Part shown: one piece after another, positions 1 through 17,604 of the stretch
Position numbering within the stretch: the stretch's first letter is position 1
Layout: the number at the start of each line of letters is the position of its first letter
NCBI GenBank assembly: GCA_038247415.1
Contig: JBBRUX010000063.1
Coordinates: forward strand, 1-17,657
Direction: 5' to 3'
Source of the DNA: Chitinivibrionales bacterium
Lineage (GTDB): Bacteria; Fibrobacterota; Chitinivibrionia; Chitinivibrionales; WJKA01
DNA length: 17,657 bases
Made by a program: the position numbers and the translations under genes
The notes under the pieces: model-generated
Told to the model about the DNA's origin: nothing
Database searches by the model: none
What the model saw: the letters and a program-made list of their open reading frames with translations, nothing else

Positions 1-145
1 CGTCAGGCAGGACTGAAGTGTGATGGATGAACAGCGTGAATCCATCAGTCTGCAAAGACCCAGGTGCAAAGCACCGCAGGGCTTGACAGACCGGCTTGCG
101 AAGCAAGAGCACGTAAGAAGGGCCGGTACCGCAGGTAGGCGCCCA
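1..145 (+). repeat. Structured repeat, long copy C1 (four hairpins; may extend left of the window)
   Basis: Hairpins TGATGGAT(21-28)/ATCCATCA(40-47), GGTGC-AAA-GCACC (63-75), CTTGC-GAA-GCAAG (95-107), TACC-GCA-GGTA (127-137). 113-145 matches 2824-2856 at 31/33. The reverse complement aligns collinearly with the copies starting at 10947 and 12438. Confidence 0.85.
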
Positions 146-259
146 TATTCAGTACTCAAAAAAATATTGGGGATAATTGTACTGTAATGGTTACTCTCGA
201 AAATCTATTTATCTTGTTTTGTAAGTTTTTGTAAGTTTCAAATACTATTTTAAGTTCCT

Positions 260-1594
260 ATGAGTCACGAAACCCTACATGATGTGCATACAGCAACCAT
301 TCTCAAGCCTAAATCTGCCGAAAATGGTGTAGAGTCGCTTTTTGACATTGGTTTCTTTGCAGTAAGAAAATTAAGCCAAGTCACCTATTTCTTCGACGGT
401 AGCGTGCAGGAAATATAGGAAAATCAAGTTATTAAATCTTACGACAACCTCGACGGTGAGGGGATCATAGAAGTAAGTGGTTCCACGTATACTGCCAAGT
501 ATTATATCAAAAATCATTTGGGATCTACTCGCGTTGTCCTGGGCGATGACGGTCAAGTTAAAGAATCTATCCGGTACGATGCTTATGGTGTGCAAACAGC
601 TATTGTTCAAGCGGGGACGGAAAATGCGAGGGAGAAGTTTACGGGGAAGGAATTGGATCGGGAAGGGGCCGTGTCGGGTGTGACAAGTGGGATAGGGCTA
701 GATTATTTCGGGGCGAGGTATTATGATCCGGAGGTGGGGATTTGGACGGGGACGGATCCTGCGGAGCAGTTCTGGAATTCATATAGCTACTGCGGTGGCA
801 ATCCGATCAATTTTACTGACCCAGATGGATTAAAAGTGGATTCCGATGGAGATGGGACACTAGATCCATATGATGTTGATCTTGATAACGATGGGGTGAA
901 TGATTCATATTCTACAGACCATGCGTCAACAGACGGCAAGAGCGTAGAATTAGCCGCAGTGTATATCAAAGCTAGTAGTACTGGAGGGCTTTATGGTGAT
1001 GGCTCCAGTTCCTCTGATCACCAATACGATGATGGAATAAGAAATGTTGGCGGCATATCAATATCTACGCGCAAGACAAGTAATTTCGAGAGAAATACTA
1101 TATCAGAATCAGAAAAGTCTATTCCTGTTACTCGAACAAATTTAGTGGCCCCAAATCCTATAAGTAGTAAGTATGCCGAAGGTAGTGGAACTTCACCTCT
1201 CCTTCAGACTATCCGAGCTACAAGTACGGTCAATGATGCTTTGATGGTGGGTTCTCTCGGCCTTCTCCTCGTTGCTCCTCTTGGTGCAGTAGCTCTTACT
1301 ACTACAGGAATAATTGGGACAGGGTTAGGACTTACTGACGCATATTTAAGTGGTAGTAGGTCGAAAGCATTGCTCACAGGCGTAGAGGCCGTGGCAGGTT
1401 TTGGCGCAGGAAAACTTGCGTTGAAAGCAGGAGGATATGCTGCTCTCAAATTCAATTTCGGAGCAAGTCGATACATTTCAGGCGCGACAGGTCGGTTTGT
1501 TGGGACTGCCGTAGGACGTAGTGCGTTTCAACTTGAAGGTGCTGCTGGAAGTGCTGCCTCAATACCATTTATGCTTTCTCCGGATGACCAATAA
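260..1594 (+). pseudogene. Orphan/truncated Rhs core with C-terminal toxin domain (ORF track 518-1594; frame open back to 419, in-frame TAG at 416-418, ATG at 260)
   Basis: Rhs core motifs YYIKNHLGSTRVV, YDAYG, FTGKELD, LDYFGARYYDPEVG and YSYCGGNPINFTDPDGL (DPxGL at 818-832), then a variable C-terminal domain. The long YD-repeat N-terminus is absent. Confidence 0.85.
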
Positions 1595-1597
1595 ACC

Positions 1598-1789
1598 ATG
1601 AGCAAAGATACCGTCTATCTGATTCTTACTTGCATTCTCGGTATTGTACTCTTGCTTTGGGGATGGAACGGCATTAAGAATCGTGCTGCAATTAAGAATA
1701 GATCGCATTACATATTGTCAATCGGCCAAATGGTTTGCGGCGGAATGATTTTTTTGTACGTTGCGATTAGTTTGATTTTTCCAAGATAG
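1598..1789 (+). CDS. Small two-TM protein (63 aa), candidate cognate immunity protein
   Basis: Starts 3 nt after the Rhs stop codon and has two hydrophobic segments. The position is typical of polymorphic-toxin immunity genes. Confidence 0.65.
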   Translation: MSKDTVYLILTCILGIVLLLWGWNGIKNRAAIKNRSHYILSIGQMVCGGMIFLYVAISLIFPR

Positions 1790-1829
1790 GCAAGAACCCG
1801 CCTGCCGGCAATTTCCTGAAATATTGTAG

Positions 1830-2315
1830 TCGCCGCTGAGTCCGAAAGATCCTTTATTCATTGGCAAATGGCGAGAAAAGAGTTTAACAAAATATCTTTC
1901 TTGTTATGGTGATTTTAATGGTGATGGATATACAGATACAGCCTTGATCATGCAACCTCATACTGGTGCTGGTATTGGCCTGTTTGTTTTGGTCTCCGAT
2001 ACGGTAAATGGCAGACAAGCAATTTGCCTATACAATTCAGAAACTGATAGTGCGAATATTGGAAAAATGAATGCCGCTAAAAGAGAAAAGATTCAGAAAA
2101 TTTATCGAGGTTTTTATGGTATCAGGATTGTGAAAAAAGGCATTTACAAAACAGCATGCGGGAAGGGCTTCTTTGATTGCATACAAGGGGAACCAGAACA
2201 AATCAAGCTCCTTTATCCTGGAATAAATTTTTTTCCATATGACGCTGGCTTCGAAAAATGTTACTATTGGGATTCAAAAGAGAACAAATTTTTAAGTCAA
2301 CAGACTGGTGATTGA
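1830..2315 (+). pseudogene. 5'-truncated hypothetical protein, possible orphan immunity protein (ORF track 1944-2315)
   Basis: Frame is open from 1830 (after TAG 1827-1829) with no ATG/GTG/TTG before 1944. It encodes GDFNGDGYTD upstream of the called TTG, then GIYKTACGKGFFDC..GEP..YYWD. Confidence 0.5.
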
Positions 2316-2511
2316 TTTCTAAAACATTGAAATTAAAATTGAATTATTTACAATAAACAAATAACCACCCATCCCATAACCCGGAATTGAAATCATGAAT
2401 CAAAAGTTTTTTTTAGGTGTTTTATTAGTTGTTGCATTAACCTATGTATCGAGTTTTAAATGAGGTGTTGAAACGGGATTCCCACAGAGCACAGTGATAA
2501 CGATACTTGAT

Positions 2512-2691
2512 TTATGTTCCCGTCGCACTCAGTTTAAATTTCGGCGCTCGACGAACTAATCTCGAACCATGTTTCTTTTGACGGCATTGAATATCTTTTG
2601 CAATATCGTCAATATTATTGCCGAATTTTGCCGCATGTTCATTTCGAGCCTTTCTGACATCCTCAACAATAGGATCCAGGATAATAGCCAT
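2512..2691 (-). CDS. 59-aa protein of the type found directly downstream of PIN-domain genes (putative antitoxin)
   Basis: MAIILDPIVEDVRKARNEHAAKFGNNIDDI resembles the DPIVEEVRxxRxxHAxxF family (recognised from memory). GGAGG RBS at 2697-2701 (minus) supports the ATG at 2691 over the ORF-track start at 2763. Confidence 0.7.
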   Translation of the reverse strand: MAIILDPIVEDVRKARNEHAAKFGNNIDDIAKDIQCRQKKHGSRLVRRAPKFKLSATGT

Positions 2692-2692
2692 G

Positions 2693-2800
2693 TTAGCCTC
2701 CAAAAAGTTCTTCAGGTGTACAAATAATCGGACATTCATACCCACATCGACCGATAACTGCAAAGTTTAGGCGCTTTGGCCTAAACGCTATAATCGTGGC
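2693..2800 (-). pseudogene. 3' remnant of a PIN-domain (VapC-like) toxin gene
   Basis: Manual translation gives ...RPK..AVIGRCGYECPIICTPEELFGG* (TAA at 2693-2695), matching the GYxxPxICTPEEL C-terminus of this PIN family. The rest of the gene is missing. Confidence 0.7.
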
Positions 2801-2856
2801 ACCAAGGGCGAATGCCCGCGCCTGTAAGAAGGGCCGATACCGCAGGTGGGCGCCCA
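2801..2856 (+). repeat. Structured repeat, short copy C2
   Basis: GGGC-GAAT-GCCC (2806-2817). 2824-2856 matches 113-145 at 31/33. 2813-2828 (TGCCCGCGCCTGTAAG) is identical to 12767-12782. Confidence 0.85.
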
Positions 2857-2995
2857 GATGGATTGAAATCAAATTATGACTTTATATGAATTTGTACTAT
2901 TGATTCACTAAACCCCATTTTCTTGCATCTTAAACCTCCTTTTTGTAGCTTCATTGTATCGATGTTAAGCCCTCATTTATTTAAAGGAGGACGGT

Positions 2996-4042
2996 ATGAT
3001 ACTTCGATTCAAATTGTTAATGATGTGCTTATTTGCTGCCTGTCCGCTTTTTGCGCAAAACGAAAGTTTCCAATGGCAAACAAAACATCCAGAGTGGATT
3101 TTTTGTGATGATTTTGAGGATGCCGGCGCATTAGTAAAGACTGGTAGATATTTTGAAATAAATAATAATGCCCAAGGATTTAATGCAGTAGCGAGTGTTG
3201 GGCTTAATGGTACCCGGGGGATGCGAGCTAAATTTGCTACGGGAGAAGTTGATCCTGGTAATTTGTCCTTGAGCTTTGGCAGAAACCCTAATGCCTATAT
3301 GAACAAACAGAAAATCCACGAGACAGTCGATTACAAAGAGATATACGTTCGTATGTATCTTAAAATGCAAACGGGATGGCAGGGGAGTATTGCAAAGCTT
3401 ATGCGAGCAACGGTTTTTTCTAGTGCAACCGACTGGAGCCAGGCAATGATTGCTCATTTGTGGAGTGATGATGCCCTTCATTTAGCTATCGATCCAGCAG
3501 GGTGCGTGGATGCAAGTGGAAAAGTTGCTTGTGTTGATTGGAACGATGCGGCTCATTTGAAATGGCTTGGTTTAAAAAGTGGTACTACTCCCATTTTTGC
3601 AACTACTAATTCTGGAATATGGTTTTGCGTTGAGTTTCATGTGAAGCTTAATGATGCAGGGAAATCTAATGGTATAGAGGAATTTTGGATCAATGGAAAT
3701 CTTGAAACCCGTGCCGTAAATCTTGATTTTGTAGGAACCTATGCAGCGTATGCCCTCAATGCTGTCTTTTTCGAAAACTATTGGAATGCAGGATCTCCCA
3801 GGGCTCAGGAACGCTATTTTGATAATATAGTTGTGTCAACAAAACCTATTGGTGCCTACGTGCCTTCTACAGCAACTCTCTGTCGTACCGAACATAATAA
3901 GGAGAGCAACCTACACAAGAACAATCTAAGCTATTATTCCCTGCTTGGCAAGTTGCTCCCTGCAACAAAAACGAAGCATAACGGAATTGCCATTGCTGTA
4001 AAACACAATAACCTTTCGCAAGGATTTATATGGTATGAGTAA
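2996..4042 (+). CDS. Secreted polysaccharide-lyase-like / concanavalin A-like (LamG-fold) protein with a C-terminal sorting-type tail
   Basis: AGGAGG RBS and signal peptide. Motifs IFCDDFE, EIYVRMYLKM, WFCVEFHVKLN..NG..EFWING and YFDNIVVST..IG. Tail YYSLLGKLL. Confidence 0.65.
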   Translation: MILRFKLLMMCLFAACPLFAQNESFQWQTKHPEWIFCDDFEDAGALVKTGRYFEINNNAQGFNAVASVGLNGTRGMRAKFATGEVDPGNLSLSFGRNPNAYMNKQKIHETVDYKEIYVRMYLKMQTGWQGSIAKLMRATVFSSATDWSQAMIAHLWSDDALHLAIDPAGCVDASGKVACVDWNDAAHLKWLGLKSGTTPIFATTNSGIWFCVEFHVKLNDAGKSNGIEEFWINGNLETRAVNLDFVGTYAAYALNAVFFENYWNAGSPRAQERYFDNIVVSTKPIGAYVPSTATLCRTEHNKESNLHKNNLSYYSLLGKLLPATKTKHNGIAIAVKHNNLSQGFIWYE

Positions 4043-4397
4043 ATATGATGAACATGTGTATTCGACCGATAAAAGCATTAACAATGTATGTAAGCGTTGC
4101 AACAAAATCCAGTTGAGTTGTACGTGCCCCAAAGCAGTACCTTCTGTTGATAGGTCAAAGATCAAGCCGCTTCTCCGTTTTGAAAAAGCTCACAGAGGGG
4201 GCAAAGAGGTTACTATTATCGAAAGGTTGCCTGCCAATAACGATTTTCTTAAGGACTTAGCTCAAAAATTAAAAAAACGATGTGGGTGTGGCGGAACGCA
4301 CAAGATTATAGATCAAGCTGGAAGAATCGAAATTCAAGGTGACAAGCGAGATGCAGTTAAAAAAGAATTACTAACGTTAGGATTTTCATGCAAATAA
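4035..4397 (+). CDS. yciH: Translation initiation factor SUI1/eIF1 family protein
   Basis: VYST..CxxC..CxC, EKAHRGGKEVTII, LKKRCGCGGT, IEIQGD. Confidence 0.92.
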   Translation: MSKYDEHVYSTDKSINNVCKRCNKIQLSCTCPKAVPSVDRSKIKPLLRFEKAHRGGKEVTIIERLPANNDFLKDLAQKLKKRCGCGGTHKIIDQAGRIEIQGDKRDAVKKELLTLGFSCK

Positions 4398-4834
4398 TTA
4401 TTGATGCAGATGCGTGTCCGCGAGCGATCAAAGATGTTTTATACAAGGCCGCCGAAAAAGATGGAATTGCGCTTACGCTTGTGGCTAATACGCATATCCG
4501 CACACCCCCGTCGCCGCTCTTTAAATCGATATGCGTTCCCTCGGGTTTTGACGAAGCCGACGACAAAATCGTAGAGCTTGCTAATACGGGAGATTTAATT
4601 ATTACAGCAGACATTCCCCTGGCCGATCGCGTTGTAAAAAAAGGCGGATTTGCCCTCGATCCTCGTGGGGAGCTTTATACCGAAGAGTCAATTGGTTCAC
4701 GTTTATCGATACGGGATTTTATGCAGGAGTTGCGCGAGGGTGGGGTAGAAACGGGCGGGCCACCCCCTTTAACACTACGCGATAAGCAACTTTTTGCCAA
4801 TGCACTACAAAAGTTTTTGCAGAATCATCGTTAG
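4388..4834 (+). CDS. yaiI: YaiI/YqxD (UPF0178) family protein
   Basis: IIIDADACP, EADDKIV, DLIITADIPLA, DPRGELYT, GGPPP. Confidence 0.93.
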   Translation: MQIIIDADACPRAIKDVLYKAAEKDGIALTLVANTHIRTPPSPLFKSICVPSGFDEADDKIVELANTGDLIITADIPLADRVVKKGGFALDPRGELYTEESIGSRLSIRDFMQELREGGVETGGPPPLTLRDKQLFANALQKFLQNHR

Positions 4835-4906
4835 GCGGGCATTGTTTAAAAAATACGGGCTAAATTTTCAAATGTTTGCCTTCGTGTTTTTTTTATAGGC
4901 TCAGGG

Positions 4907-5408
4907 TTACTTTTTTTGTAAAAAAATTGCCGTGTTTTCCCAGGTGCTTGTGCTGCAATCAGGTGTTCTATTATCTCTGTCAAGAGTTTCTAAAACGCGC
5001 CTCATGCCGTACTCTAAAGAAATTGTGGGCTTGAATGCAGACAGATCACGCATTAGTTTTTGGCCACTATACAAGCAATGATGAGCATAAATATCACGAT
5101 ATATTTCAAAAGGTGCATACTGTTGAGCAATACACAAGATGCCCTACATCTGCAAATGCACGCAGCTCGCTTTCGGCATTCTCTTTGGTAAAACAGATCA
5201 TATCAATGACAGCATCAAACTTTTCGCGTTGCATGGCAGCTTCAAATGCTGCGCGATCCGACCTGTCTCCAACAATAGTTTTTACGCCAACAGGCGATGC
5301 ATGACTTTTTCTGCGATTAAACAGGGTGGCTTCTGCCCATATATTTTGCAACGGTGCTATAAAGCCAGCGCTCATATTACTTGTACCGCCGAGTATGCAA
5401 ACGCGCAT
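4907..5408 (-). pseudogene. Internally deleted NAD-dependent epimerase/dehydratase (extended SDR) pseudogene
   Basis: 5106-5408 encodes a Rossmann N-terminus (ILGGTSNMS, LFNR, IVGDRSD, FDAVIDMICF, YCSTV) that stops early. A different frame (4907-~5105) encodes a typical SDR C-terminus (KLMRDL..FKPTISLEYGMRRV). The catalytic YxxxK middle is absent. Confidence 0.75.
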
Positions 5409-5527
5409 AGGCTCTTTTGGTTATGAGAATTCTTTAATATACAACGTTTGAGTGGCAAGTTCATTGTTTCAAAAATGCAGCGTGGAGTGAGATTTTAAAT
5501 TTATGAGCTACAACCATCACGCCCGAA

Positions 5528-5556
5528 TTGACACGCTAACCCATTGATTGTATTAT
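5528..5556 (+). promoter_or_regulatory. Sigma70-type promoter upstream of the 5597 ORF
   Basis: TTGACA (5528-5533), 17-nt spacer, TATTAT (5551-5556), with an overlapping TATAAT at 5554-5559. Confidence 0.6.
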
Positions 5557-5596
5557 AATAATATTAGTTCTAAAGTATTACTTTAAGTTTGTAAGG

Positions 5597-6829
5597 ATGG
5601 TCGCCATGATCCCAAAGACAGATTCAGATACTAATCGACGTCTGGATGGCTTGACAAGTAGCGTTGATTCCAACCGGTTATATTCGATACTGCTTGATGC
5701 TCGCGCAGCAAGCGTATCGGAAAATATGTACGATATCGCCGAAAAAATTCTTGCAAACGAAAAGGAAAATGCAAAAGCTGCCCTCGAAAAATTGTGGTCG
5801 CTTAAGAAAAACATGCAAACTAATGGCGAGACACAGACGGTCGACCTGCTTATTTCGCATTATCAGAATAAGATTGATGTTTTGCGAGACCGCGAAGAAC
5901 ATATCAAAAAAGTGAGTAAAGAGTCACGTTCGCTTCTGGAGGAAAAAAGACAGAAGGATAGCTCGTTAGCTGCTGTAAAGCTTGAGATCGAAGAGTGCAC
6001 CGGCCAGCTGGAAAAACTCACCGAAACATTGCGTCAGGCACGCGTTCGCGAGCAGGAATTGCAGCTGATAGAAGGCCAGGTTAATAAAGAGCTTATTCTT
6101 AATGAAAACGAAGTGGTAAACGGTCTTTACGAGATTATTATGGCGGCAGCTCCTGCAGAAGAAGATGTACCGGATGCCGCTGCTGAGATCCCTGTACCTG
6201 CGCTTCGCAATCAGGCTCGGGGAGCCAAAGAGTTCGAAAAATCTTCTGAGGTGATTCCCGAAGAAACCTCGGCAATTGCCCCGTTCCAATTTGATGAGGT
6301 TATCGATTCGGCTGAACCGGAATCTGACGAAGATCAGCAGCTGGATGAGATACATGCACTTTACAAACAAATCGAACGTCCCGAAGCCGAACTTTTTCCA
6401 AAGTCTGTGGTTAAAACAACGCGGGGAGTTGTAATAGGCGAGTATTACTATGATAGCACTGCCTATAAAAATAGCCGTCATTATATCTTTAATAGTCTTT
6501 ACTTTATGGAGCAATTAGCATTAGGCGTTCAAATGCTGCGAGAAAAATTTGATCCCGTTTCGTATGCAGAAAAAATTCAAATGATTGCAGATGCTCATAA
6601 GCGCGTTACAACAAATCCATCGCTTCATTTTGAGGTGTCTACCAATGAAATCTTGAATGAAAAAACGCTTAAAGAGCTTTATGGAACGCTTAAATCGAAA
6701 CAATACGACGATGTAATTAGTTTTTGCAACCGGCTTGGTGCAAAGATTCGCGTGTTAGGATCAAATTATCGCATTCTCCTCAAAGAACAAGTCGAACGAT
6801 ATTCGAAAGAATCTATTCCTGGCGCTTAG
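5597..6829 (+). CDS. Hypothetical protein: coiled-coil N-half, acidic linker, globular C-terminal domain
   Basis: 410-aa ORF with an E/K/L/Q heptad-rich region and an upstream promoter. No family recognised. Confidence 0.8.
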   Translation: MVAMIPKTDSDTNRRLDGLTSSVDSNRLYSILLDARAASVSENMYDIAEKILANEKENAKAALEKLWSLKKNMQTNGETQTVDLLISHYQNKIDVLRDREEHIKKVSKESRSLLEEKRQKDSSLAAVKLEIEECTGQLEKLTETLRQARVREQELQLIEGQVNKELILNENEVVNGLYEIIMAAAPAEEDVPDAAAEIPVPALRNQARGAKEFEKSSEVIPEETSAIAPFQFDEVIDSAEPESDEDQQLDEIHALYKQIERPEAELFPKSVVKTTRGVVIGEYYYDSTAYKNSRHYIFNSLYFMEQLALGVQMLREKFDPVSYAEKIQMIADAHKRVTTNPSLHFEVSTNEILNEKTLKELYGTLKSKQYDDVISFCNRLGAKIRVLGSNYRILLKEQVERYSKESIPGA

Positions 6830-6917
6830 TTCTGTTTAGCCCAAGTGTATTTTATAGAATGCGCTTACAAAATGTTCTGTAAGCATATTCTGTAACGTTC
6901 ACCCCAAAGGACGATGT

Positions 6918-7916
6918 GTGTTTTTGAAACTTTGTTTGCTTATCCTTGTCTTAATGGTAGCCCATAGTTTTGCAGCATCTACCGAATCGACAAAAGCTCC
7001 TACAAAAGCTTCGGTACCTAAACCATCAGCAACACGAGCGGTTAAAAAGAGCGAGCAACCAACTGCTCCTCAAGGCGTAAAAACACCAGCCAAACCAGTA
7101 AAACCAACCTTTGCAGTACGCGATATCGAGAATGTTCCTAATCAAAGTGTCTCAGTTAAAAAAGATTCTTCGAGAAGTACCTCGGTAAAATCAGCTCCTG
7201 TGACGTTAGCAATATCTGACTCCGATACGAGCATACAAAAAAAAGCTCTTAAAACCGATTCTATATCACACAACACGCTTGTGTGCGACACTCCTCTAAT
7301 AGATTCATTATCAAAAATAGCAGCAATCGATTCTGCAAAGGTTCCCTCCGATACCTCTTTAACGATTCCCGTGGCTGCAAAGAATGTTGTTTCAAGTTCG
7401 CCTGCACAAAAGCACTTAGAAATCAAGAGCGCACTTAAAAAAGCGCCGCGACCCTTTAACGTTATTGTAAAGATATTATTGTTAGTTGCACTCTGCAGTA
7501 TTCTGGGAGCCATTGTACTGTTTCTTTTGCTTCGTAAACAGCAACCACACTTCATGACCAATACGCGATTGTCAATTATGGATAAAGAAATTCAATTGGC
7601 AGCACGTTATATCGAAACAAATTATGCAGACCAGTCGCTAACTGTTGCTTCTTTGTGCGCATCAATAGTTACCGGGCCAGCTTTTTTAGAGGCACTCTTC
7701 ATGCGCGATCTTGGAATGGGTGTGGAAGATTTTATCGAACAAGTGCGCGTTAATCGTGCAAAGCTTCATCTCGATAAAGACTCCTCACTCTCGGTAGATG
7801 TGCTTGCTTCCCTGTGTGGGTATACAAGTGCCGATTCTCTGTCGCTGGCTTTTGAACATGTTACTTCTGTTACTTTACCATCGTATATCAAAACTATCAA
7901 TGCTCCCCATGCGTAA
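6918..7916 (+). CDS. Membrane-anchored AraC-family HTH protein
   Basis: Signal peptide (..AHSFA), S/T/P/K-rich low-complexity segment, one TM (ILLLVALCSILGAIVLFLLL), then an AraC domain (YIETNYAD, FIEQVRVNRAK..L, LASLCGY..F..VT). Confidence 0.8.
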   Translation: MFLKLCLLILVLMVAHSFAASTESTKAPTKASVPKPSATRAVKKSEQPTAPQGVKTPAKPVKPTFAVRDIENVPNQSVSVKKDSSRSTSVKSAPVTLAISDSDTSIQKKALKTDSISHNTLVCDTPLIDSLSKIAAIDSAKVPSDTSLTIPVAAKNVVSSSPAQKHLEIKSALKKAPRPFNVIVKILLLVALCSILGAIVLFLLLRKQQPHFMTNTRLSIMDKEIQLAARYIETNYADQSLTVASLCASIVTGPAFLEALFMRDLGMGVEDFIEQVRVNRAKLHLDKDSSLSVDVLASLCGYTSADSLSLAFEHVTSVTLPSYIKTINAPHA

Positions 7917-7918
7917 AG

Positions 7919-9376
7919 GTGTTTTTTTTGAATAAGCCTTGGCATCACTGTGTCCCTCGTTTCTCAAGGTTCTTTATTGCTTTGAGCATTTTGGGATTTC
8001 CTGCCCAAGCTTTATTACAAGCATCATTATCAGATGTGTACACTGAAGATACTTTAGGTATCTATCTGCAAAAACAACGAGTCGGTACTTTTTTGCATAG
8101 CGTAGGCCCAGGATCTGCGGGAAGAATTATAGAAACCACCGAGCTTTCTATTCGTAAGGTAGCTGGCATATCTGGTCTTGACGATATAAATATGACAGAG
8201 CGTAGTGTTTATAATGATTCTGGAATCTTGATAGGCGCGTGGCAGAAGTTGTCAAGTCCTTCGGGGAAAACGCAGTGGGAGCTTATCCAGAATGCTCATG
8301 GATGGAGTTTGAGTATTGCAACGGGTGGTGTAACCACGGTAAAAAAGATTGCAGCTCCGTATGCTAGCCTTGTGCAAGAAGCTGCAATGGCACATAGAAT
8401 AAAGAATCGAAGCATTGCCAAGAATACAGAGTTTATAGATACGGCGTATGATCTAACCTCAAGCGCATTGGTGATAACCAGAAGCGTTTGTGTCAAGCTT
8501 CCTTCAGAGAACCAACCCAATTATGTATTTATGTCAACAGATGATGTTTCACGCAAACCCTGTCGCGTGGAAATAAATGTACAAGGGAAGCTTGTTTACC
8601 AGGATATTCCCCCTATGTTTTCTGCACATCGCGACAATTACGTTTCATCGGATACTACGAAACAAAGCCAAGTCATTACCGATATCTTTGATGTGGTGAA
8701 AATACCGTCTGAGCGGGTGACAGATGAGCACGATCGCATTGGGGTATCGCTAGGACGCGGAATAGATCTCGACGAAACAGTTAAGACTCTGTACGAACGA
8801 AAGGATTCCTGCTGGATTCTGATTCCGCAAGCAAAGACGTGTTCGATGCTTGGGAGTAAAGACGATCCTGCTGCTCTTAAATATTGCACTGCAACCCCAA
8901 CCATGCAAAGTAACGACAAACGAATTCGTACACTTGCACTGGCTCAAAGCAGGGGAAAATCATCTTTATGCGATATTGTGCAAAGCTTGAATACGTACAC
9001 CTATCGGACCTTGGTAAAGCGCTACACCCCAACTTTTTCGAGTGCACTCGAAACATTGAAGGCTGGATATGGCGACTGTGGCGAACATGCCGTCCTGCTT
9101 GGCGCAATGCTGCGAAGTATTGGTATTCCCGCACGCATTGTATACGGGCTCATGTATTCTTCAGCTAAAAAAGGATATTTGTACCATGCCTGGGTTATGG
9201 TGTCCATAAAGGGGAGCTGGTTTTTTGCAGATCCTGCTTTTGGAGTTTTCCCTGCCTCCACCGACCATATCCCCCTCTTGCTCGATGATAGTGGTGAGGG
9301 AATCATAAAACTGGCTGCATTTATCGATAACATTCTGGTGTTTCCTGTTTCCGAAAATTTAAGCAAAGGGCATTAG
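7919..9376 (+). CDS. Exported transglutaminase-like domain protein
   Basis: Cys-His-Asp triad motifs GDCGEHAVL, RSIGIPARIVYG, YHAWV and WFFADP. Hydrophobic N-terminus; exact start uncertain. Confidence 0.88.
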   Translation: MFFLNKPWHHCVPRFSRFFIALSILGFPAQALLQASLSDVYTEDTLGIYLQKQRVGTFLHSVGPGSAGRIIETTELSIRKVAGISGLDDINMTERSVYNDSGILIGAWQKLSSPSGKTQWELIQNAHGWSLSIATGGVTTVKKIAAPYASLVQEAAMAHRIKNRSIAKNTEFIDTAYDLTSSALVITRSVCVKLPSENQPNYVFMSTDDVSRKPCRVEINVQGKLVYQDIPPMFSAHRDNYVSSDTTKQSQVITDIFDVVKIPSERVTDEHDRIGVSLGRGIDLDETVKTLYERKDSCWILIPQAKTCSMLGSKDDPAALKYCTATPTMQSNDKRIRTLALAQSRGKSSLCDIVQSLNTYTYRTLVKRYTPTFSSALETLKAGYGDCGEHAVLLGAMLRSIGIPARIVYGLMYSSAKKGYLYHAWVMVSIKGSWFFADPAFGVFPASTDHIPLLLDDSGEGIIKLAAFIDNILVFPVSENLSKGH

Positions 9377-9377
9377 A

Positions 9378-9406
9378 TTGCCTATAATGGCAGCATGACA
9401 TATTTT
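9378..9406 (+). promoter_or_regulatory. Putative promoter for tRNA-Pro
   Basis: TTGCCT, 17-nt spacer, TATTTT, ending 17 nt before the tRNA. Confidence 0.4.
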
Positions 9407-9423
9407 TTTAAAAGTTACTCTTT

Positions 9424-9497
9424 CGGAGTGTAGCGCAGCCTGGTAGCGCACTTGGTTCGGGACCAAGTGGTCGCAGGTTCAAATCCTGTCACTCCGA
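9424..9497 (+). tRNA. tRNA-Pro (CGG)
   Basis: Cloverleaf with CGGAGTG/CACTCCG acceptor stem, CTTGG-TTCGGGA-CCAAG anticodon arm and GGTTCAAATCC T arm. CCA not encoded. Confidence 0.97.
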
Positions 9498-9631
9498 TAT
9501 CTCCTCTTTTTTTAGAGTGGTCCTACCCAGGATGTTTCCCCAAAGTGACTACTTTTTGTAAGCAAGCACGGGTAGCAAAAATCCTTAACTGGTTCATTGG
9601 CGTTTACATTTTTACACATAGGTGACCATTC

Positions 9632-10930
9632 ATGCTCAAGTCCATAAAGTCTTTTGTTTTACCAAATGGACTTACCCTTATAGTTTGTCCCAAAAACGAT
9701 GCTCCCATTATAGCAGTACAGGTGTGGTATAAGATAGGCAGCGCTGCGGAGCATGATGGCATTCGCGGAATTTCCCACGTTCTGGAACATATGATGTTTA
9801 GGGGCTCCAAAAACTTTGGGCCGCAGCAACATTCGCGTTTAATCAATGAAACCGGAGGCCATTGCAACGCATTTACCGCCGAGGATATGACAGCTTTTCA
9901 AAATTGTATCCCTACAGAATATTTTGAGCTCGCATTGCAATTAGAAGCCGATCGCATGAGCTGCCTCACGCTTGATCCTGCACTTTTTGAAATAGAACGC
10001 AGCGTGATTATCGAAGAATATCACACCTACATGAATAATCCTGTTGGTAGGGCTTTTTTAGAGTTTCGTTCGGCATTATTTGGTGACCATCCGTATGGCG
10101 TTTCCCCACTGGGAAGAGATCAAGACCTTAAAAGCATGACCTGCGAGGATGTTTCTGCATATTATAAAAAGTATTATAATCCCGATAATGCATCAATCGT
10201 TATTGTCGGCGATTTCGAATCTTCCGAGGCGGTTTACGGAAGGGTGTGCCATCATTTTGGTTCAATTCCTTCTGGATTAAACAAAGCTTCCCTCGAAAAA
10301 ATACCTGTTTTGCCGGTTTCTGCAAAAAATTCTAAACCTATGGTTCGTGTTATCGATTTTGATGTTCCGCTTCTTATTGTTGGGTTTCCCGTACCAACAT
10401 CTGCGGGAATGGCGCTTGAAATTTTACAATTGGTAATGTCTTCGGGCGATTCTGGACGTTTACACAACGTATTAGTTCGCGAGCGTGGGGTTGCTGTTTC
10501 GGTGGGGGGTATGAATCAATTCTTACACCTCTGTGGCATCTCGTTCTTTTTTGCTGCCTTTACCCCCAATGTTTCCGCAAAAAAAGTAGAATCTGTTTTG
10601 TTGCAAGAAATAGAGCGCGTTAAAACAGAACCATTGCTTCAAGGCGAGTGGGATAAAGTAAAGAATTCTGCACTAACGGGTAGAATTTTCGAGTTGTATT
10701 CATCAGAGCAAATTTGCAGTCGCCTCGGATTTTCTCATACTGTAGAGGGCAATTATCAATTATGGGTCGATCGCCTAGCTGCTTTAGATAAACTTACCCC
10801 TCAAGAACTCATGCAGACAGCCTTGGAATGCTGGTCGCAAGACAAGTGTTTTGTGCTGAGAATAAAGCCTAAGAAGGTAAAGCTGCTCTTGTATTTGGTT
10901 GGGTTGATTAGGTTGATATTTAAGAAATAA
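9632..10930 (+). CDS. M16 (pitrilysin/M16B) zinc metallopeptidase
   Basis: LPNGL, VWYKIGS, GISHVLEHMMFRGS (HxxEH), NAFT, LEADRM, ERSVIIEE, HPYG, YYNPDNA. Confidence 0.93.
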   Translation: MLKSIKSFVLPNGLTLIVCPKNDAPIIAVQVWYKIGSAAEHDGIRGISHVLEHMMFRGSKNFGPQQHSRLINETGGHCNAFTAEDMTAFQNCIPTEYFELALQLEADRMSCLTLDPALFEIERSVIIEEYHTYMNNPVGRAFLEFRSALFGDHPYGVSPLGRDQDLKSMTCEDVSAYYKKYYNPDNASIVIVGDFESSEAVYGRVCHHFGSIPSGLNKASLEKIPVLPVSAKNSKPMVRVIDFDVPLLIVGFPVPTSAGMALEILQLVMSSGDSGRLHNVLVRERGVAVSVGGMNQFLHLCGISFFFAAFTPNVSAKKVESVLLQEIERVKTEPLLQGEWDKVKNSALTGRIFELYSSEQICSRLGFSHTVEGNYQLWVDRLAALDKLTPQELMQTALECWSQDKCFVLRIKPKKVKLLLYLVGLIRLIFKK

Positions 10931-10946
10931 GAATACAATAAGATTT

Positions 10947-11108
10947 TGGGCATTCCGGCTTCGTCGTTTGGCCTCCTTCATGCTCTCGCTTTGCGAGCCG
11001 GTACAAAAATCCTTGCGATGCAAAGCGCCTGAGTCTTTTTGCACTGAGGGGTGTCACTGCAATTTCCACCCTCATATTCCGTCCTCCCTAATGTACTTGA
11101 CATAAGGT
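10947..11108 (-). repeat. Structured repeat, long copy C3
   Basis: 10948-11017 matches 12439-12508 at 68/70. Looser similarity continues through a TGAGGG../CCCTCA hairpin (11045-11074), GTCCT..CTAAT and TTGACAT-AAGGT (11097-11108). Confidence 0.9.
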
Positions 11109-11143
11109 ACAAAAGAAAAGTAGTGCGTTTAAGATTATTCTTA

Positions 11144-11191
11144 CCCCTCACTGTGTCGGAGAGGGGCCGACGGTGTACCCCGTGGCGACCA
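11144..11191 (+). repeat. Structured repeat, short copy C4
   Basis: 11168-11191 matches 12789-12812 at 22/24. It has the same GGGCCG-[hairpin]-GGCG(C/A)CCA frame as C1/C2, preceded by a CCCCTC/GAGGGG stem. Confidence 0.75.
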
Positions 11192-11246
11192 GACTGAAGA
11201 TTTACAAGTGGTTTAATAGATTACTACCCAAGCAATTTAATTCAAA

Positions 11247-12308
11247 TTACCTTTGGACTTTATTCACCAGTATCAAGGGGTAAAGCTGAGCACGATTACG
11301 GGTTTCTGATCTTTTGAAATTACCTAGTGTCATTTGTCTGCCCAAAAGGTTGAATTGCACGATCGAATAAGTGCTTGAGTTTACAGGACAGGTCTGGATA
11401 GTTGACAACATGGGCTGAACAGAAGTTGTTGGAAGAAGACCGGCTTTCTGCCATGCGCTATACCAGAGCCGCGCGAGAACTACCGAAGATCGTTGAATAT
11501 GTGCTTTGGTGAAAGGGCCGGTTAATTTCCAGAGGCTTGTATAATAAGTGTTCGGTGGGATGCCCGATCTATCCCAGCCCGAAGCTGTTTGTGCTTTATT
11601 GTCGGCGGCCATGATCGAATCCACGTATGAGTTTACATCAAGAACACAGGAAAAAATCACATCGATGGGGCGGGATAGTACCATCACAGAATCCTTCACA
11701 ATCGTGAGCTCCTGTTGAAACTGGCCGACTATCCCCGTTTCATACCGCGAGTGAATGCCTGTGTTACCGCTGAGTTGCCCATTGTAATTCACCGTTGCGT
11801 GAAGGGCGATATTGCAATCGCCGATGTAGTGCCCAAGGTCTGCGGCACTCTGATAGGCCTTTGTCCAATCGCGGCGTTTTAATTGATTAACAAGAGTATC
11901 ATACATCCAGAGAGCTGCCCATGGTACTATCCCGTTTGTCTCGATCGTAGAAAGCCCATAGCGGGCAACGGCCGAGTCGTAGTCGTGGGTGAACGTTTTG
12001 AAATTTGGGTAGTAGTCTATGTCAATAAAATGCTTCTTAGCTTCGCTTGCGTAGCTGCTTTTACGGTTATCCGCATCGGATGCATGAGCAGAAAAGTATG
12101 CCTTCTGGTCGATGAACTGCTTCATCGATGCGGGAAGATGGGTAACTGCTCCCGCGTTAATAATACTGTGGGCCGTGCCGCCCCAGCCTAAAGAAGGGCT
12201 AGCGTTAAGGGCGATTGAGATAGCGATTAGTGCTAACGTCAAGCGCGTGCGATTAGTAGGGGATGGTTGATGGCATATTCTGGATGTGCAGTCATTTTTA
12301 TGTATCAT
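11247..12308 (-). CDS. Secreted S1/P1 nuclease / zinc-dependent phospholipase C family protein
   Basis: Signal peptide then mature N-terminal WGGTAH. Motifs HASDAD.RK, HFIDID, NGIVPW, AADLGHYIGD..LHAT.NYNGQ, GIHSRYE and tail FNLLGRQ. The ATG at 12308 is preferred because the ORF-track extension to 12563 runs through repeat C5. Confidence 0.88.
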   Translation of the reverse strand: MIHKNDCTSRICHQPSPTNRTRLTLALIAISIALNASPSLGWGGTAHSIINAGAVTHLPASMKQFIDQKAYFSAHASDADNRKSSYASEAKKHFIDIDYYPNFKTFTHDYDSAVARYGLSTIETNGIVPWAALWMYDTLVNQLKRRDWTKAYQSAADLGHYIGDCNIALHATVNYNGQLSGNTGIHSRYETGIVGQFQQELTIVKDSVMVLSRPIDVIFSCVLDVNSYVDSIMAADNKAQTASGWDRSGIPPNTYYTSLWKLTGPFTKAHIQRSSVVLARLWYSAWQKAGLLPTTSVQPMLSTIQTCPVNSSTYSIVQFNLLGRQMTLGNFKRSETRNRAQLYPLILVNKVQR

Positions 12309-12437
12309 ATGAGTAGTCAGTCGAATGTGTAAAAAAGCAGGAATGGGGTATTCAATCAATCTACTATGCATTTGAAAAAATGGCAACCAAAACAATTGTA
12401 AGACAAGATATAAAATAAAAATAAATGCATAAGAATC

Positions 12438-12598
12438 CGGGCATTCCGGCTTCGCCGTTTGGCCTCCTTCATGCTCTCGCTTTGCAAGCCGGTACAAAAA
12501 TCCTTGCGGCACTGCGTGCCTGAGGCATTCAAGCCTGAATGCTTCACTCCGTTTTGCATTCACCCTCCAGTCCTGGCTAATTCGATTGACATGAAGGT
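12438..12598 (-). repeat. Structured repeat, long copy C5
   Basis: Minus-strand hairpins CGGC-GAA-GCCG (12447-12457), CTTGC-AAA-GCGAG (12476-12488), GGCAC-GCA-GTGCC (12508-12520), TGAATGC/GCATTCA (12536-12562). 68/70 identical to C3 over the core. Confidence 0.9.
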
Positions 12599-12751
12599 GT
12601 TTAAACCGTGATTTAAAGAATTATGGAATTACCGTGATTAGTTCGGACAGAAATTAAGAACGTCAAGTAATTCACCCTTCGACCCTTCGACATGCTTATC
12701 TTTAAAATAAAGAGATGCTGTATGCTACATTACTTTTAACATAATATCTCA

Positions 12752-12812
12752 GGGGGCCACAGGCTCTGCCCGCGCCTGTAAGGAGAGTCGACGGTGTACA
12801 CCGTGGCGCCCA
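12752..12812 (+). repeat. Structured repeat, short copy C6
   Basis: 16-nt identity to C2, a perfect palindrome ACGGTGTACACCGT (12791-12804), and the same GGCGCCCA end as C1/C2. Confidence 0.8.
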
Positions 12813-12863
12813 AATCAAGATCCGATTTGTTATTATTTTTTATTATTAGTTGTTTAAAAGATA

Positions 12864-12936
12864 TGGAGCAGAGGGGGTTCGAACCCCTGACCCTCAGACT
12901 GCCAGCCTGATGCTCTACCAACTGAGCTACAGCCCC
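12864..12936 (-). tRNA. tRNA-Ala (GGC)
   Basis: GGGGCTGTAGCTCAGTTGGTAGAGC..., anticodon loop CTGGCAG, G3:U70 alanine determinant, TTCGAAC T loop. U6/U67 mismatch; CCA not encoded. Confidence 0.96.
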
Positions 12937-13095
12937 AAAAATCGAAGTCTATTAATATACTTTTTAGTGATTTGTTTCCACAAGCTAGCCTGGGTCGATT
13001 TATTTTAATAAGCCTTTTTAGCACCTCGCTTGGGTAGCACACAGACTTTGGTGCACGTGATATACCTTTTATTATGCCTGTTTGGATGAAAATAT

Positions 13096-14085
13096 ATGGA
13101 TTTGTTCTTAAAGTCATTAGAAGTTTTGAGGATTTGCCTCCCCGTGTTTCTGCTTATGGGGCTAGGGCGGGAGATGAAGCGACGGGGGTGGATGAATGAA
13201 TCTCACCAGACCTTTATTAATGGGCTTATTTATAATTGTGCGCTGCCATTTTTGGTTTTTGCAGAACTTTCGCGGCAAGATTTTAGAATCTTTTTAAATG
13301 CATCGCTCTTTGTTTCGGTGGTTGTTGCCATTGCTGCATCGGCGCTGTTGTTTTTTTTAATTGCTAAGGTGCTGAGGTTTAAAGGTGCCTATGTGGGACC
13401 TTTTATTTTTGTGACGTATTGGTGCAATGGGGCATATTTGGGGTTTCCCCTTGCTGATTTTGCATTTGGTGCCGAAAAAGGCTTGGCTATTGCAGCAATT
13501 GTCAATGCGTTTACAATTCCAATTTTTGTGGGATCATCGCTGTATCTCGCTCTTTGGTCTGGCGAAAAACATGGGCCAGATTCCTCTCGACCAACATTTG
13601 TAAAGCTTTTGTTTAACCCACCGCTTATTGCAGCGCTTGTTGGAATGCTGGTTTCTTTGCTTATTACAGCCATTCGGGTTAAAGGAATTCCTATCCCTTC
13701 TCCGTTAACAACTATTGTTGTTTCGGGCCATAACTTTTTTAAATTAGGCGGGAGTATGGGGTTTCCCCTAGCTCTTATTACCATAGGGGCAGCGCTCGAG
13801 TTTAAAAGTTTTTCGGCGTATCGTTTGCCCATCTTTTTATCAACCGTGGGCAAGCTTGTTGTTTCTCCATTTATTACGTTTGCTGTTTTTTATTTCTTTT
13901 TTCCCGATGCTCCAAAAGAAGTGCGTGGTGTTGCGGTGCTTCTTATGGCAACACCCAGTGCCGTGGCAAGTTATATTATTACTCGTCAATTAAAAATCGG
14001 AGAAGATTTTACCGCTGCAGTTCTGGTTATTTCCACCATTGCAAGTATTGTGACAATACCGGTGTGGCTGTTTTTTCTGATTTAG
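13096..14085 (+). CDS. AEC (auxin efflux carrier) family transporter
   Basis: About 10 TM segments. Motifs LPVFLLMGLG, ALPFLVF, NGAYLGFPL, NPPLIA, PLALITIG, KLVVSP, ATPSAV. Confidence 0.92.
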   Translation: MDLFLKSLEVLRICLPVFLLMGLGREMKRRGWMNESHQTFINGLIYNCALPFLVFAELSRQDFRIFLNASLFVSVVVAIAASALLFFLIAKVLRFKGAYVGPFIFVTYWCNGAYLGFPLADFAFGAEKGLAIAAIVNAFTIPIFVGSSLYLALWSGEKHGPDSSRPTFVKLLFNPPLIAALVGMLVSLLITAIRVKGIPIPSPLTTIVVSGHNFFKLGGSMGFPLALITIGAALEFKSFSAYRLPIFLSTVGKLVVSPFITFAVFYFFFPDAPKEVRGVAVLLMATPSAVASYIITRQLKIGEDFTAAVLVISTIASIVTIPVWLFFLI

Positions 14086-14132
14086 TTTTTTGATGTTGTG
14101 CTCTTTATTCCAGATTTTTGAGAGGACCTTGT

Positions 14133-15716
14133 GTGAATTTTCGACAGGAAACGTTGAGACGTAGAACTTTTGCGATTGTATCTCACCCCGATGCGGGAAA
14201 GACTACTTTAACCGAAAAATTACTGCTCTATGGTGGAGCAGTGCAGGCAGCAGGCGCTGTATCGGCTCGGAAAAAAGAGCGGGGAACCGTTTCGGATTGG
14301 CTAGAAATAGAACGGACCCGCGGTATTTCGGTAAGCTCTACCGTCTTGTATTTCGATTATGAAGGTTACCACATTAATCTTCTTGACACTCCAGGACATA
14401 ACGACTTTTCTGAAGATACCTACCGGGTACTGATGGCCGTGGATGCGGTTATCATGGTGATTGATGGGGGAAAGGGCATCGAAAAACAAACCAAAAAGCT
14501 TTTTGAAGTGTGTAGACGACGCAAAATCCCTGTTTTTACTTTTGTCAATAAAATGGATCGTCCCTCGCTCGATACTCTTGCCATACTTGACGAAATTGAG
14601 AGTGTTCTAAAAATCAAAGCATGCCCTATCAACTGGCCATTAGGATCGGGTTACGATTTTAAGGGAGTTTGGGATAGAAGAACAAAATTGGCGCATCTGT
14701 TCGAGCGAACTGTTGGTGGTGCGTATCGTGCTCCGGTGCAAACCTATGGCCTTAACGATCCGGCAATGCAGGAAATTTTGGGTGAGAATACCTATAAAAG
14801 GGTTGCCGAAGAGCTTGAAGTTATAGAGCATGCCGGCTCCGATCTTAACCTCGAGGATATTGCAAGCGGAGTCACAACCCCTGTTTTTTTTGGAAGTGCG
14901 GTTAACAATTTTGGTGTTCAGCTCATGCTCGATGGCTTTATAGAGTTTTCGCCGCCGCCTCAGCCACGCACTGCCCAAGGGATAATCGTAGATCCCGAAG
15001 CCGATTTTTTTTCTGGTTTTATATTTAAAATCCAGGCAAATATGGATCCTCGCCATCGCGATCGTATGGCATTCATGCGTATTGTCAGTGGTAAATTTAC
15101 GCGCGATATGCCTGTTACGCATGTGCGCACGCAAAAGAAAATCAGGCTTTCTAATTCGAGTAATGTATTTGGCAAAGATAGAATCTCGGTTGATGAAGCG
15201 TATCCAGGAGATGTAATTGGCGTTATTGGAGGAGATTTTTTTGGAATAGGGGATACGATAAGCGAAAATCCAGCTATTACCTATGCAGAAATTCCTCGCT
15301 TTGCCCCAGAAAGTTTTGTTTACATACGCAACCCGCTTCCCTCAAATGATAAGCGCTTTCAAAGTGGAATAAAGCAATTGGTGCAAGAGGGGTTGGTTCA
15401 TTTATTCGAAAATGTCAATAGCGGACAAAAAACGTATTTGCTCGGTGCCGTGGGCCCTTTACAATTTGATTTGGTAAAATATCGACTTGAGGCAGAATAT
15501 TCGGCAACATCCACAATCGAAAGCGCCTCGTGGGCACTGGCTCGCTGGATCGTTAATCCTTTGCAGGATATATCCTCGATGCAAATACCCTATGGTGCAA
15601 TATTTGTTAAGGATAAAGACGGCAGAAATGTTCTGCTGTTTGAGCGCGAAGCACATGTGCGGTATTTTAGCGATAATAACAAATCAATAGAACTTTCGGA
15701 TGCCCCATTAGGGTAG
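14133..15716 (+). CDS. prfC: Peptide chain release factor 3
   Basis: RRRTFAIVSHPDAGKTTLTEKLLL, DTPGHNDFSEDTYR, NKMD, FKIQANMDPRHRDR, GAVGPLQF. The GTG at 14133 after GAGAGG is preferred over the TTG at 14118. Confidence 0.97.
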   Translation: MNFRQETLRRRTFAIVSHPDAGKTTLTEKLLLYGGAVQAAGAVSARKKERGTVSDWLEIERTRGISVSSTVLYFDYEGYHINLLDTPGHNDFSEDTYRVLMAVDAVIMVIDGGKGIEKQTKKLFEVCRRRKIPVFTFVNKMDRPSLDTLAILDEIESVLKIKACPINWPLGSGYDFKGVWDRRTKLAHLFERTVGGAYRAPVQTYGLNDPAMQEILGENTYKRVAEELEVIEHAGSDLNLEDIASGVTTPVFFGSAVNNFGVQLMLDGFIEFSPPPQPRTAQGIIVDPEADFFSGFIFKIQANMDPRHRDRMAFMRIVSGKFTRDMPVTHVRTQKKIRLSNSSNVFGKDRISVDEAYPGDVIGVIGGDFFGIGDTISENPAITYAEIPRFAPESFVYIRNPLPSNDKRFQSGIKQLVQEGLVHLFENVNSGQKTYLLGAVGPLQFDLVKYRLEAEYSATSTIESASWALARWIVNPLQDISSMQIPYGAIFVKDKDGRNVLLFEREAHVRYFSDNNKSIELSDAPLG

Positions 15717-17477: not shown

Positions 17478-17581
17478 GAGGGTTGGAATTAATTGTTCGC
17501 CTAATTCTTTGAGCTCTGTGCTGGTCGACTTAATTTGACAGAAAAAACGTATTCGTTAGTTGGATTCCCCTTTTTATAGCA

Positions 17582-17604
17582 TCACGCTGCCAACGGCAGC
17601 GTGA
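17582..17604. repeat. Perfect 10-bp inverted repeat (REP-like hairpin or terminator)
   Basis: TCACGCTGCC-AAC-GGCAGCGTGA. Confidence 0.55.

Follow-up and report, generated by a model that had tools for sequence, protein, structure and literature searches.

The ~160-base non-coding element dispersed along a contig of a Chitinivibrionales bacterium (GenBank assembly GCA_038247415.1, contig JBBRUX010000063.1, positions 1 to 17,657 of the forward strand; hereafter the window) is a real, uncatalogued family, and covarying changes have preserved its eight-helix fold in different genera. The assembly to which the window belongs, as contig C63, is G000, a sediment metagenome-assembled genome (MAG) of 3.84 Mb in 99 contigs that is 96% complete. 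With about even confidence, we read it as a new family of small, gene-less intergenic repeats resembling miniature inverted-repeat transposable elements (MITEs) and repetitive extragenic palindromes (REPs), mobile now or formerly, whose fold would act as single-stranded DNA (ssDNA).

Recurrence of the element in G000 is far above chance. An iterated nhmmer profile converged at 59 matches (E<1e-3), and a covariance model termed R1 (167 positions, 45 pairs), built from 26 full-length G000 copies, scored 150 candidates, of which 72 matched at E≤0.01; model and genome scan thereby supply the copy number that the initial annotation, made from the letters of the window, had proposed to determine. 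Identity among copies ranges from 68 to 100%, and three contig-internal copies are 96–99% identical to the copy at the start of the window. As many G000 contigs start or end within copies, a single repeat collapsed in assembly may account for part of the 100%-identical copies.

The expectation that these copies belong to no described Rfam family held up in searches of Rfam 15. At the gathering threshold the window returned two tRNAs and nothing else, and at E-value thresholds only chance matches were obtained for positions 10900–12900, for five copies from three genomes and for one copy from the genus g8, the best score over copies being 15.3 bits where the gathering score was 79. Phage and plasmid collections gave no match by blastn. 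Of two sequence patterns run against viral contigs, the first matched nothing and the second produced one chance match, rejected by R1, while a pattern scan of JGI metagenome contigs yielded two chance matches and no R1 match. No description of such repeats in Fibrobacterota was found in the full-text literature, subscription journals lying outside its coverage.

Eight helices emerge from the alignments. Closing helix P0 pairs a 5′ GCGnn with an nnCGC located just before an invariant CCA (observed pairs GC/AU, UA/CG/UG and UA/CG/AU/GC) and is followed by a second closing helix, P0b (GCC/GGC, GGC/GCC, GGG/CCC). Between P0b and the 3-bp junction helix P1 (GGG/CCC, GTG/CAC, ATG/CAT, AGG/CCT) lies a conserved purine-rich internal loop, in which AGGAC(U/G)G(G/A)A (AGGACUGGA) stands opposite G(U)AAG(G/A)AGG (GUAAGGAGG), and further inward is a junction with three arms. 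The remaining helices are the local hairpin H1, the rod P3 (13 pairs, with tandem G·A mismatches), which bears the triloop hairpin H2, the triloop hairpin H3, and the 3′ hairpin P6. Compensatory changes that had initially been listed for four stems, H1 to H4, are real, but that description missed four of the eight helices, and the three long-range ones were overlooked.

When 31 distinct copies found outside G000 were aligned to R1, 93.0% of 1142 cells were paired as compared to 31.9–45.5% upon sliding of the partners, 39 of the 45 pairs had changed on both sides, and the covariation score of 0.491 (controls ≤0.073) was equalled by none of 500 shuffles. The 29 aligned G000 copies behaved similarly, with 86.6% of cells paired (33.9–41.7% slid) and a score of 0.435 (≤0.095). 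Since R1 alignments are model-fitted, plain MAFFT alignments were used as well. From these, RNAalifold recovered P0, P3, H2 and H3 in G000, and P0, P0b, P1, H1, P3, H3 and P6 in 12 g8 copies, where 20 of 45 pairs were compensated and C:G and U:A pairs were added within the internal loop. In line with the earlier suggestion that the structure is under selection, pairing and covariation thus surpass the slid controls, and the architecture is recovered unaided in another genus. Across genera, the central arms shrink or vanish, junction and ends are kept, and the unpaired nucleotides GGAC, AAGGAGG, ACCG and GCCCA are conserved.

For individual sequences, folding z-scores amounted to –1.66 with RNA and –2.39 with DNA parameters for a canonical G000 copy, and to –4.34 and –5.35, respectively, for a g8 copy. 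Single-sequence minimum-free-energy folds came without the long-range helices, and a local GGGC...GCCC hairpin in the 3′ domain was preferred over P0/P0b; an alternative conformer is therefore possible.

The full unit extends beyond the folded core. Its ends are inverted copies of an ~45-nt module, composed of a short G+C-rich hairpin (P6) and the sequence (n)nCGCCCA(A/G)A(T)TCTTAT, and between them sits a ~155-nt core folding on one strand, whose 5′ GCGnn is joined by the closing helix to the nnCGC of the right-hand module. A hidden Markov model (HMM) of the 3′ module matched 80 sites in G000, 40 of them outside long copies. Fourteen of these 40 were the displaced true ends of copies that carry an additional ~55-nt hairpin module in the purine-rich junction strand, and ten lay upstream of a long copy, all in inverted orientation, leaving none of the 24 separate modules near long copies in any other arrangement. 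The other 16 were solo, with several forming core-less inverted (–)(+) pairs and one being a 50-nt mini-palindrome with 20-nt arms. The terminal inverted repeats of a MITE are hence present, both in the ten upstream modules and in the core-less pairs; in g8, the left arm GATTGGCGCG mirrors CGCGCCCAAATC by eye. Five pairs of long copies diverge around a common A+T-rich spacer of ~105 nt. Deletion derivatives retain P0, P0b and P6, and even micro-derivatives preserve the helix with an unpaired CCA after it.

Further modules accompany the element. The ~55-nt module, which holds the triloop hairpins TACCC-CAA-GGGTA and CCC-GAA-GGG, occupies one and the same point of the purine-rich junction strand in no fewer than 11 copies, which belong to different subtypes (contigs C68, C10, C16, C24, C3, C88, C89, C70, C21, C54 and C19). 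Either the module was inserted into the AGGAGG motif in a nested fashion or modules were shuffled. A different insert, located after H3, was found in the copies on contigs C14 and C75. Other repeat modules recur in the 5′ flanks of G000 copies and a GC-rich module X accompanies the element in g8 (loci of neighbouring modules: L107 1251–1400, L130, L131, L132 and L143), such that intergenic DNA of the order seems to be pieced together from small hairpin modules. G049 harbours a head-to-tail array (L102 1134–2037; 354-nt period, 98% identical units), unlike the dispersed copies elsewhere.

R1 matched 18 of 61 sampled genomes of the same order. These included five of six g8 genomes, with at least 30–45 scored copies each, and two of three from g22, and none of six from G000's own family (f1). 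In a phylum-wide sample, nine of 111 genomes matched at E≤1e-8, all from the same order, and no match was obtained in 58 genomes of families f10–f17, which are absent from the same-order set. In a pattern scan of species genomes, one MAG from Chitinispirillaceae and one from an uncultured member of Fibrobacterota proved to be true carriers; the only other pattern match, in a Polyangiaceae MAG, was rejected as chance. As far as searched, the family is confined to one Fibrobacterota order, that including Chitinispirillaceae.

Differences between sister species reveal turnover at the DNA level. G034 and G037, whose flanking genes are 85–91% identical, both carry the element at all four shared intergenic regions inspected, in opposite orientation at three and in the same orientation at one. 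At the three inverted regions a GC-rich companion module lies beside the element, and the rest of the spacer is remodelled. From the covered parts of two of these regions the element is absent in G016 (flanks 72–79% identical), and at a g22 locus it is present in G032 and not at the syntenic site in G051, G117 and G052. Relatives thus show presence/absence polymorphism of the kind expected of MITEs, but yield no clean insertion boundaries, because the intergenic DNA is unalignable (G032 vs. G051 and G117) or the regions are remodelled (G034 vs. G037). On the window itself, contigs from four DNA runs displayed only cross-mapping of other copies, and no trustworthy excision, empty-site or inversion joint.

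Opposite orientation of three of the four orthologous copies, together with the inverted repeats bounding the units and TTGAC words at the 5′ edge of the core, might also be expected of invertons, i.e. units flipped by a global invertase as in Bacteroides, thereby switching adjacent genes. We consider this highly improbable, given that the inspected loci are remodelled and not merely flipped, that four gene contexts are about equally frequent and include convergent gene ends devoid of a promoter target, and that a covarying fold is not required for such switching.

The gene contexts were derived from the 59 G000 copies, all of which are intergenic, overlaps with open reading frames (ORFs) involving spurious frames only. 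Relative to the flanking ORFs, the four orientation classes comprise 11, 11, 10 and 8 copies. About one quarter of copies reside between convergent gene ends, and the 3′ end is often found 4–55 nt from the stop of a convergent gene. There is no linkage to tRNA genes, with only three of 59 copies at a distance of ≤600 nt. The GCCCA end had also been considered as a copy of tRNA 3′ ends, since some tRNA-Val, tRNA-Ile and tRNA-Met genes look similar; the resemblance is due to their acceptor stems and the idea was dropped.

Such placement bears on a further candidate, namely integron-like attC sites or another tyrosine recombinase site on folded ssDNA. The strand-specific fold, the closing helix, the variable centre and a shape that is kept while sequence varies are all reminiscent of attC, yet we see hardly any chance that this explanation applies. 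Copies are scattered, do not sit 3′ of co-oriented promoterless genes, and form no cassette arrays; their random orientation and the lack of co-oriented arrays make for an arrangement that is not integron-cassette-like. By eye, no RYYYAAC/GTTRRRY boxes were seen at the helix ends, and a Pfam scan of the window, which involved no intI-specific profile, detected no integrase.

Mismatch counts identified the sense strand as the folding strand: G·T exceeded A·C in G000 (51 vs. 25; binomial p 0.004, with copies non-independent) as well as in other genomes (14 vs. 6), G·A exceeded C·T in G000 (94 vs. 19), and the RNAalifold energy was better for the sense strand. The terminal loops of H2, H3 and P6 comprised 3 nt in 76 of 87 cases in G000, and H3 was capped by C-GAA-G in 20 and by C-AAA-G in seven of 29 copies, so the C-G-closed GNA triloops spotted by the initial annotation are real and dominant. 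In other genomes, wobble pairs accounted for 1.2% of cells. Triloops and a low wobble content are atypical of RNA, a judgement uncalibrated against reference sets. Prevalent triloops, rare wobble pairs and the stronger z-scores with DNA parameters (two copies) together let the fold lean to DNA. According to PMC13037366, GCGNAGC mini-hairpins have an exceptional stability in DNA and a much lower one in RNA, and are found at ssDNA origins and single-strand initiation (ssi) signals. Leaning to RNA are the long-range helices and the conserved unpaired purines. Of the two options originally offered, an ssDNA site or a structured RNA, both are hence kept as readings, the structure being confirmed and DNA favoured on triloops, wobble content and z-scores.

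Were the strand to act as RNA, the core might represent a functional small RNA (sRNA) and the repeats its many genes or hitch-hiking copies; this is the main rival explanation, which we entertain tentatively. Expression of such an RNA would be driven by a promoter of its own or by one nearby, and the transcript would be trimmed back as far as the closing helix, where helix plus CCA may constitute a processing or protection signal, loosely tRNA acceptor-like, and the purine-rich internal loop could serve as a protein-binding or catalytic centre. Eight covarying helices, long-range ones among them, and unpaired nucleotides kept across genera would fit this explanation, as would the strand-specific signal (G·T over A·C, tandem G·A pairs at fixed places), the variable or shrinking central arms around a kept junction, and the persistence of helix and unpaired CCA in micro-derivatives. 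However, the copies lack promoter- or terminator-like sites at a constant spacing, a consensus scan performing at chance (four promoter-like sites vs. 4.0 expected from shuffles), and upstream sequences differ between copies. Orientation is random with respect to neighbouring genes, about a quarter of copies are located between convergent gene ends, and so many triloops with so few wobble pairs would be unusual for RNA. tRNA genes are scarce near the copies, the tRNA-like interpretation is speculation, and we know of no precedent for 59–72 paralogous sRNA genes.

Copy number, inverted ends, deletion derivatives, nesting and a patchy, unstable occurrence constitute MITE/REP-like behaviour, with a fold that surpasses those of known families of this type in support and, by a wide margin, in complexity. 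In the mechanism we favour, the end modules would be the cis-sites for propagation, as suggested by their survival in deletion derivatives and in inverted pairs without a core. The fold would act in a single-stranded form of the sense strand, most plausibly ssDNA exposed during mobilisation. The mobilising protein is assumed to be single-copy or host-encoded, given that no Y1/RAYT, TnpB or IS110 partner and no multi-copy transposase in G000 came to light.

A number of observations weigh against this reading, and several stem from the search for a mobilising enzyme. The Y1/RAYT domain (PF01797) does not co-occur with the element: it was detected in 46 of 61 genomes, including all six element-free f1 genomes, and is missing from G034 and G037, which contain at least 45 and at least 37 scored copies, respectively. 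TnpB (PF07282) was found in none of five element-rich genomes, with control genomes matching, and IS110 (PF01548) in three of the five, only two of them above cut-off; the latter domain is absent from G016 and G032 and has no match in the window. A PDDEXK_2 nuclease, guessed as partner from a neighbouring ORF fragment, was rejected with 0/5 genomes. The Pfam scan of the window revealed no mobility domain, and among 4,990 G000 ORFs of ≥120 aa no family had more than three members (≥60% identity over 90 aa). Within G000, no autonomous parent element with the same ends was found; the sole pair of inverted ends spaced by 0.5–3.5 kb flanks an ORF with a P-loop-like motif, which may, judged by eye, encode an AAA-type ATPase. 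None of the partner enzymes profiled, whether Y1/RAYT, TnpB, IS110 or PDDEXK_2, thus tracks the element, and the machineries named at the outset are unsupported: beyond the failure of Y1/RAYT and TnpB to co-occur, there are no integron-like arrays and no lagging-strand bias like that of IS200/IS605. Specifically, the sense strand lies on the G-rich strand in 19 of 47 copies (p 0.24; median absolute GC skew in this test, 0.064), and the absence of replication-strand bias counts against an ssDNA route via the lagging-strand template, as that route predicts one.

These results speak even more directly to the idea of REP/REPIN-like or IS200/IS605-derived repeats (PATEs), moved by a Y1 HUH transposase (RAYT/TnpA) and possibly acting as TnpB guide-RNA scaffolds. 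Hairpin-rich, intergenic copies with inverted pairs and GNA triloops would suit it, and G000 does encode one weak Y1-domain ORF (C19:51888–52208, E 1.8e-11). Yet no copy is located near this ORF, the ends are inverted instead of forming same-strand subterminal hairpins, and replication-strand bias and TnpB are both lacking. The co-occurrence test, with PF01797 present where the element is not and missing where it abounds, largely refutes this explanation, which we regard as very improbable.

Additional points against the MITE/REP-like reading concern insertion and fold. No target-site duplication was seen at the flanks, where exact ends are undefined and the 3′ consensus TCTTAT fades gradually, and no clean filled-versus-empty site was recovered, the intergenic DNA of sister species being too diverged or remodelled. 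In G000, two of five covariation measures failed against shuffles (double-change pairs, 49/500; further pair types, 242/500), and model-fitted alignments lean toward structure. The window copy at 10945–11095 folds no better than shuffled sequence (z –0.23 as RNA, +0.21 as DNA). Lastly, a conserved 155-nt multi-helix core with unpaired purines is not obviously needed by a transposition cis-site and is more typical of a functional RNA. A bolder proposal, unlikely in our estimate, would make the core the active nucleic-acid part of a new mobility or processing system: either a folded strand of DNA or RNA to which an enzyme other than Y1, TnpB or IS110, host-derived or single-copy, is recruited, or a catalytic or protein-scaffolding RNA whose closing helix and CCA end are excised by tRNA-processing enzymes.

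In the window, the three long copies align over ~150 nt and the stems and linkers quoted in the initial annotation are present. Of the six copies reported there, R1 run with filters off recovered the three long ones (138–141 bits) and two short ones (E 2.5e-4 and 0.0028), while the third short copy (11144–11191) is weak (E 0.23). Long copy C1 (subtype 1; 1–148, + strand) is truncated at its 5′ end by the contig start and has the 3′ end ...GGTAGGCGCCCATAT. It was matched by R1 at 1–141 (140.6 bits, model positions 13–154) and by nhmmer at 1–148, and is 96–100% identical to copies on contigs C95, C24, C65, C39, C3 and C16. Long copy C2 (subtype 2; 10938–11105, – strand; 138.1 bits, model positions 1–167) is full-length, its 3′ end lying 15 nt from the stop of a convergent M16 peptidase gene (9632–10930; Pfam). 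The terminator scan flagged positions 11011–11025 (–) of this copy, where in subtype 2 the sequence ATTTTTGT, which forms the 3′ side of the rod, comes after H2; the match is probably fortuitous, the rod of this subtype being A/T-rich. Long copy C3 (12429–12594, – strand) matched at 140.1 bits, with mismatches marked: several pairs are broken in its second closing helix and rod. It is chimeric, as its 5′ half belongs to subtype 3 and its 3′ 80 nt are 93.75% identical to copy C2. It is positioned upstream of a promoter-like site, called by the promoter scan, of the gene at 11247–12311 (–).

Among the short copies, degenerate S1 (2736–2865, + strand; R1 E 0.0028) retains GCGCC/GGCGC as closing helix, along with two hairpins, one H1-like and one H3-like (GGGC-GAAT-GCCC); its junction strand is TGTAAGAAGG, and both the 3′ hairpin and GCCCAGA are still present. 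The 3′-module HMM matched it at 2819–2859 (E 2e-6), and it is 91.7% identical to positions 113–148 of copy C1. S2 (11144–11200, + strand), called from sequence and arrangement within a weak R1 match (11089–11200, E 0.23), is an inverted, diverged 3′ module (hairpin ACGGTGTACCCCGT plus GGCGACCAGA) directly upstream of copy C2. Together with the 3′ end of C2 it provides the terminal inverted repeats of a ~260-bp unit (10938–11200), an arrangement that agrees with the ten of ten inverted upstream modules of G000. S3 (12764–12821, + strand; R1 E 2.5e-4 with a 109-position internal deletion) has GCGCC/GGCGC as closing helix, TGTAAGGAG as junction strand and ACGGTGTACACCGT as 3′ hairpin, together with GCCCAAAT. 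Being inverted relative to copy C3, it completes a ~390-bp unit with inverted ends (12429–12821), and it lies 42 nt from the end of a tRNA-Ala gene (12863–12937, –). The intervening A+T-rich spacer (12595–12763) contains GATTA/ATCA-type words, noted by eye and unscored, and is, likewise by eye, homologous to the ~105-nt spacer between divergent long-copy pairs on contigs C24, C65, C16, C28 and C39.

The genes of the window are ordinary, with Pfam matches for SUI1, DUF188, transglutaminase-like, M16 peptidase, RF3 and PAS histidine kinase proteins. Immediately downstream of copy C1, with which the contig begins, positions 518–2315 hold a 358-aa ORF that opens with YD/RHS-like repeats, has a hydrophobic tail rich in Gly and Ala, and is followed by small ORFs; it has no Pfam match, the RHS label was read by eye, and the region may be the end of a polymorphic-toxin locus. 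Neither tRNA-Ala(GGC) at 12863–12937 nor tRNA-Pro(CGG) at 9423–9498 has an encoded CCA, and roughly half (by eye) of the 45 ARAGORN tRNA genes genome-wide end in or precede CCA.

Most known bacterial interspersed repeats are simple palindromes whose folding is assumed, not shown. The present family stands out by an eight-helix junction fold that covaries across genera, by 30 to >70 copies per genome, and by the fact that no usual ssDNA transposase tracks it. Movement as folded ssDNA would imply an enzyme not yet recognised, while a role as RNA would place the family among the largest paralogous structured-RNA families in bacteria. In practical terms, the repeat breaks assemblies, many contigs of the MAG ending inside copies, and annotation of Fibrobacterota should mask or model it, for which R1 offers a starting point.

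Known systems share some of these traits. Integron attC sites likewise conserve structure over sequence on one strand, with a closing helix and variable centre; the Fibrobacterota element differs in its random orientation and in showing no cassette arrays, R/L boxes (by eye) or linked integrase. IS200/IS605 ends, PATEs and the omega/reRNAs of TnpB are similarly strand-specific and place a structured ~150 nt at a transposon-like boundary, whereas the element has inverted ends, no replication-strand bias, no correlation with Y1 and no TnpB (0/5). IS110/IS1111 bridge or seek RNAs differ in their adjacent DEDD recombinase gene, none of which was found in the window. Similar in size, the ssi signals and phage G4-type origins (PMC13037366) likewise form several hairpins in ssDNA and rely on the same C-GAA-G mini-hairpins (GCGAAGC/CCGAAGG); they are single phage or plasmid sites, in contrast to dozens of chromosomal copies with no replication-strand bias and no phage or plasmid match.

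Closer in organisation are Correia/CREE repeats of Neisseria, ERIC/IRU of enterobacteria, and RUP and BOX of pneumococcus, which are dispersed, gene-less units of 100–400 bp with inverted ends, modular with deletion derivatives, predicted to fold, and devoid of a nearby transposase. No sequence similarity to any of them was found, nor any target duplication or parent insertion sequence for the Fibrobacterota element. To our knowledge, covariation of a one-strand fold across genera has not been shown for CREE, ERIC/IRU, RUP or BOX. REP/BIME and REPIN sequences with their RAYTs are also high-copy, intergenic and hairpin-forming, with inverted pairs, compensated stems and mosaics with small modules. 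They differ in that the defining RAYT gene does not co-occur with the element described here, and in scale: REPs are single palindromes of 20–40 nt, whereas the Fibrobacterota unit spans ~155–167 nt and comprises 45 modelled pairs in eight helices, including long-range ones.

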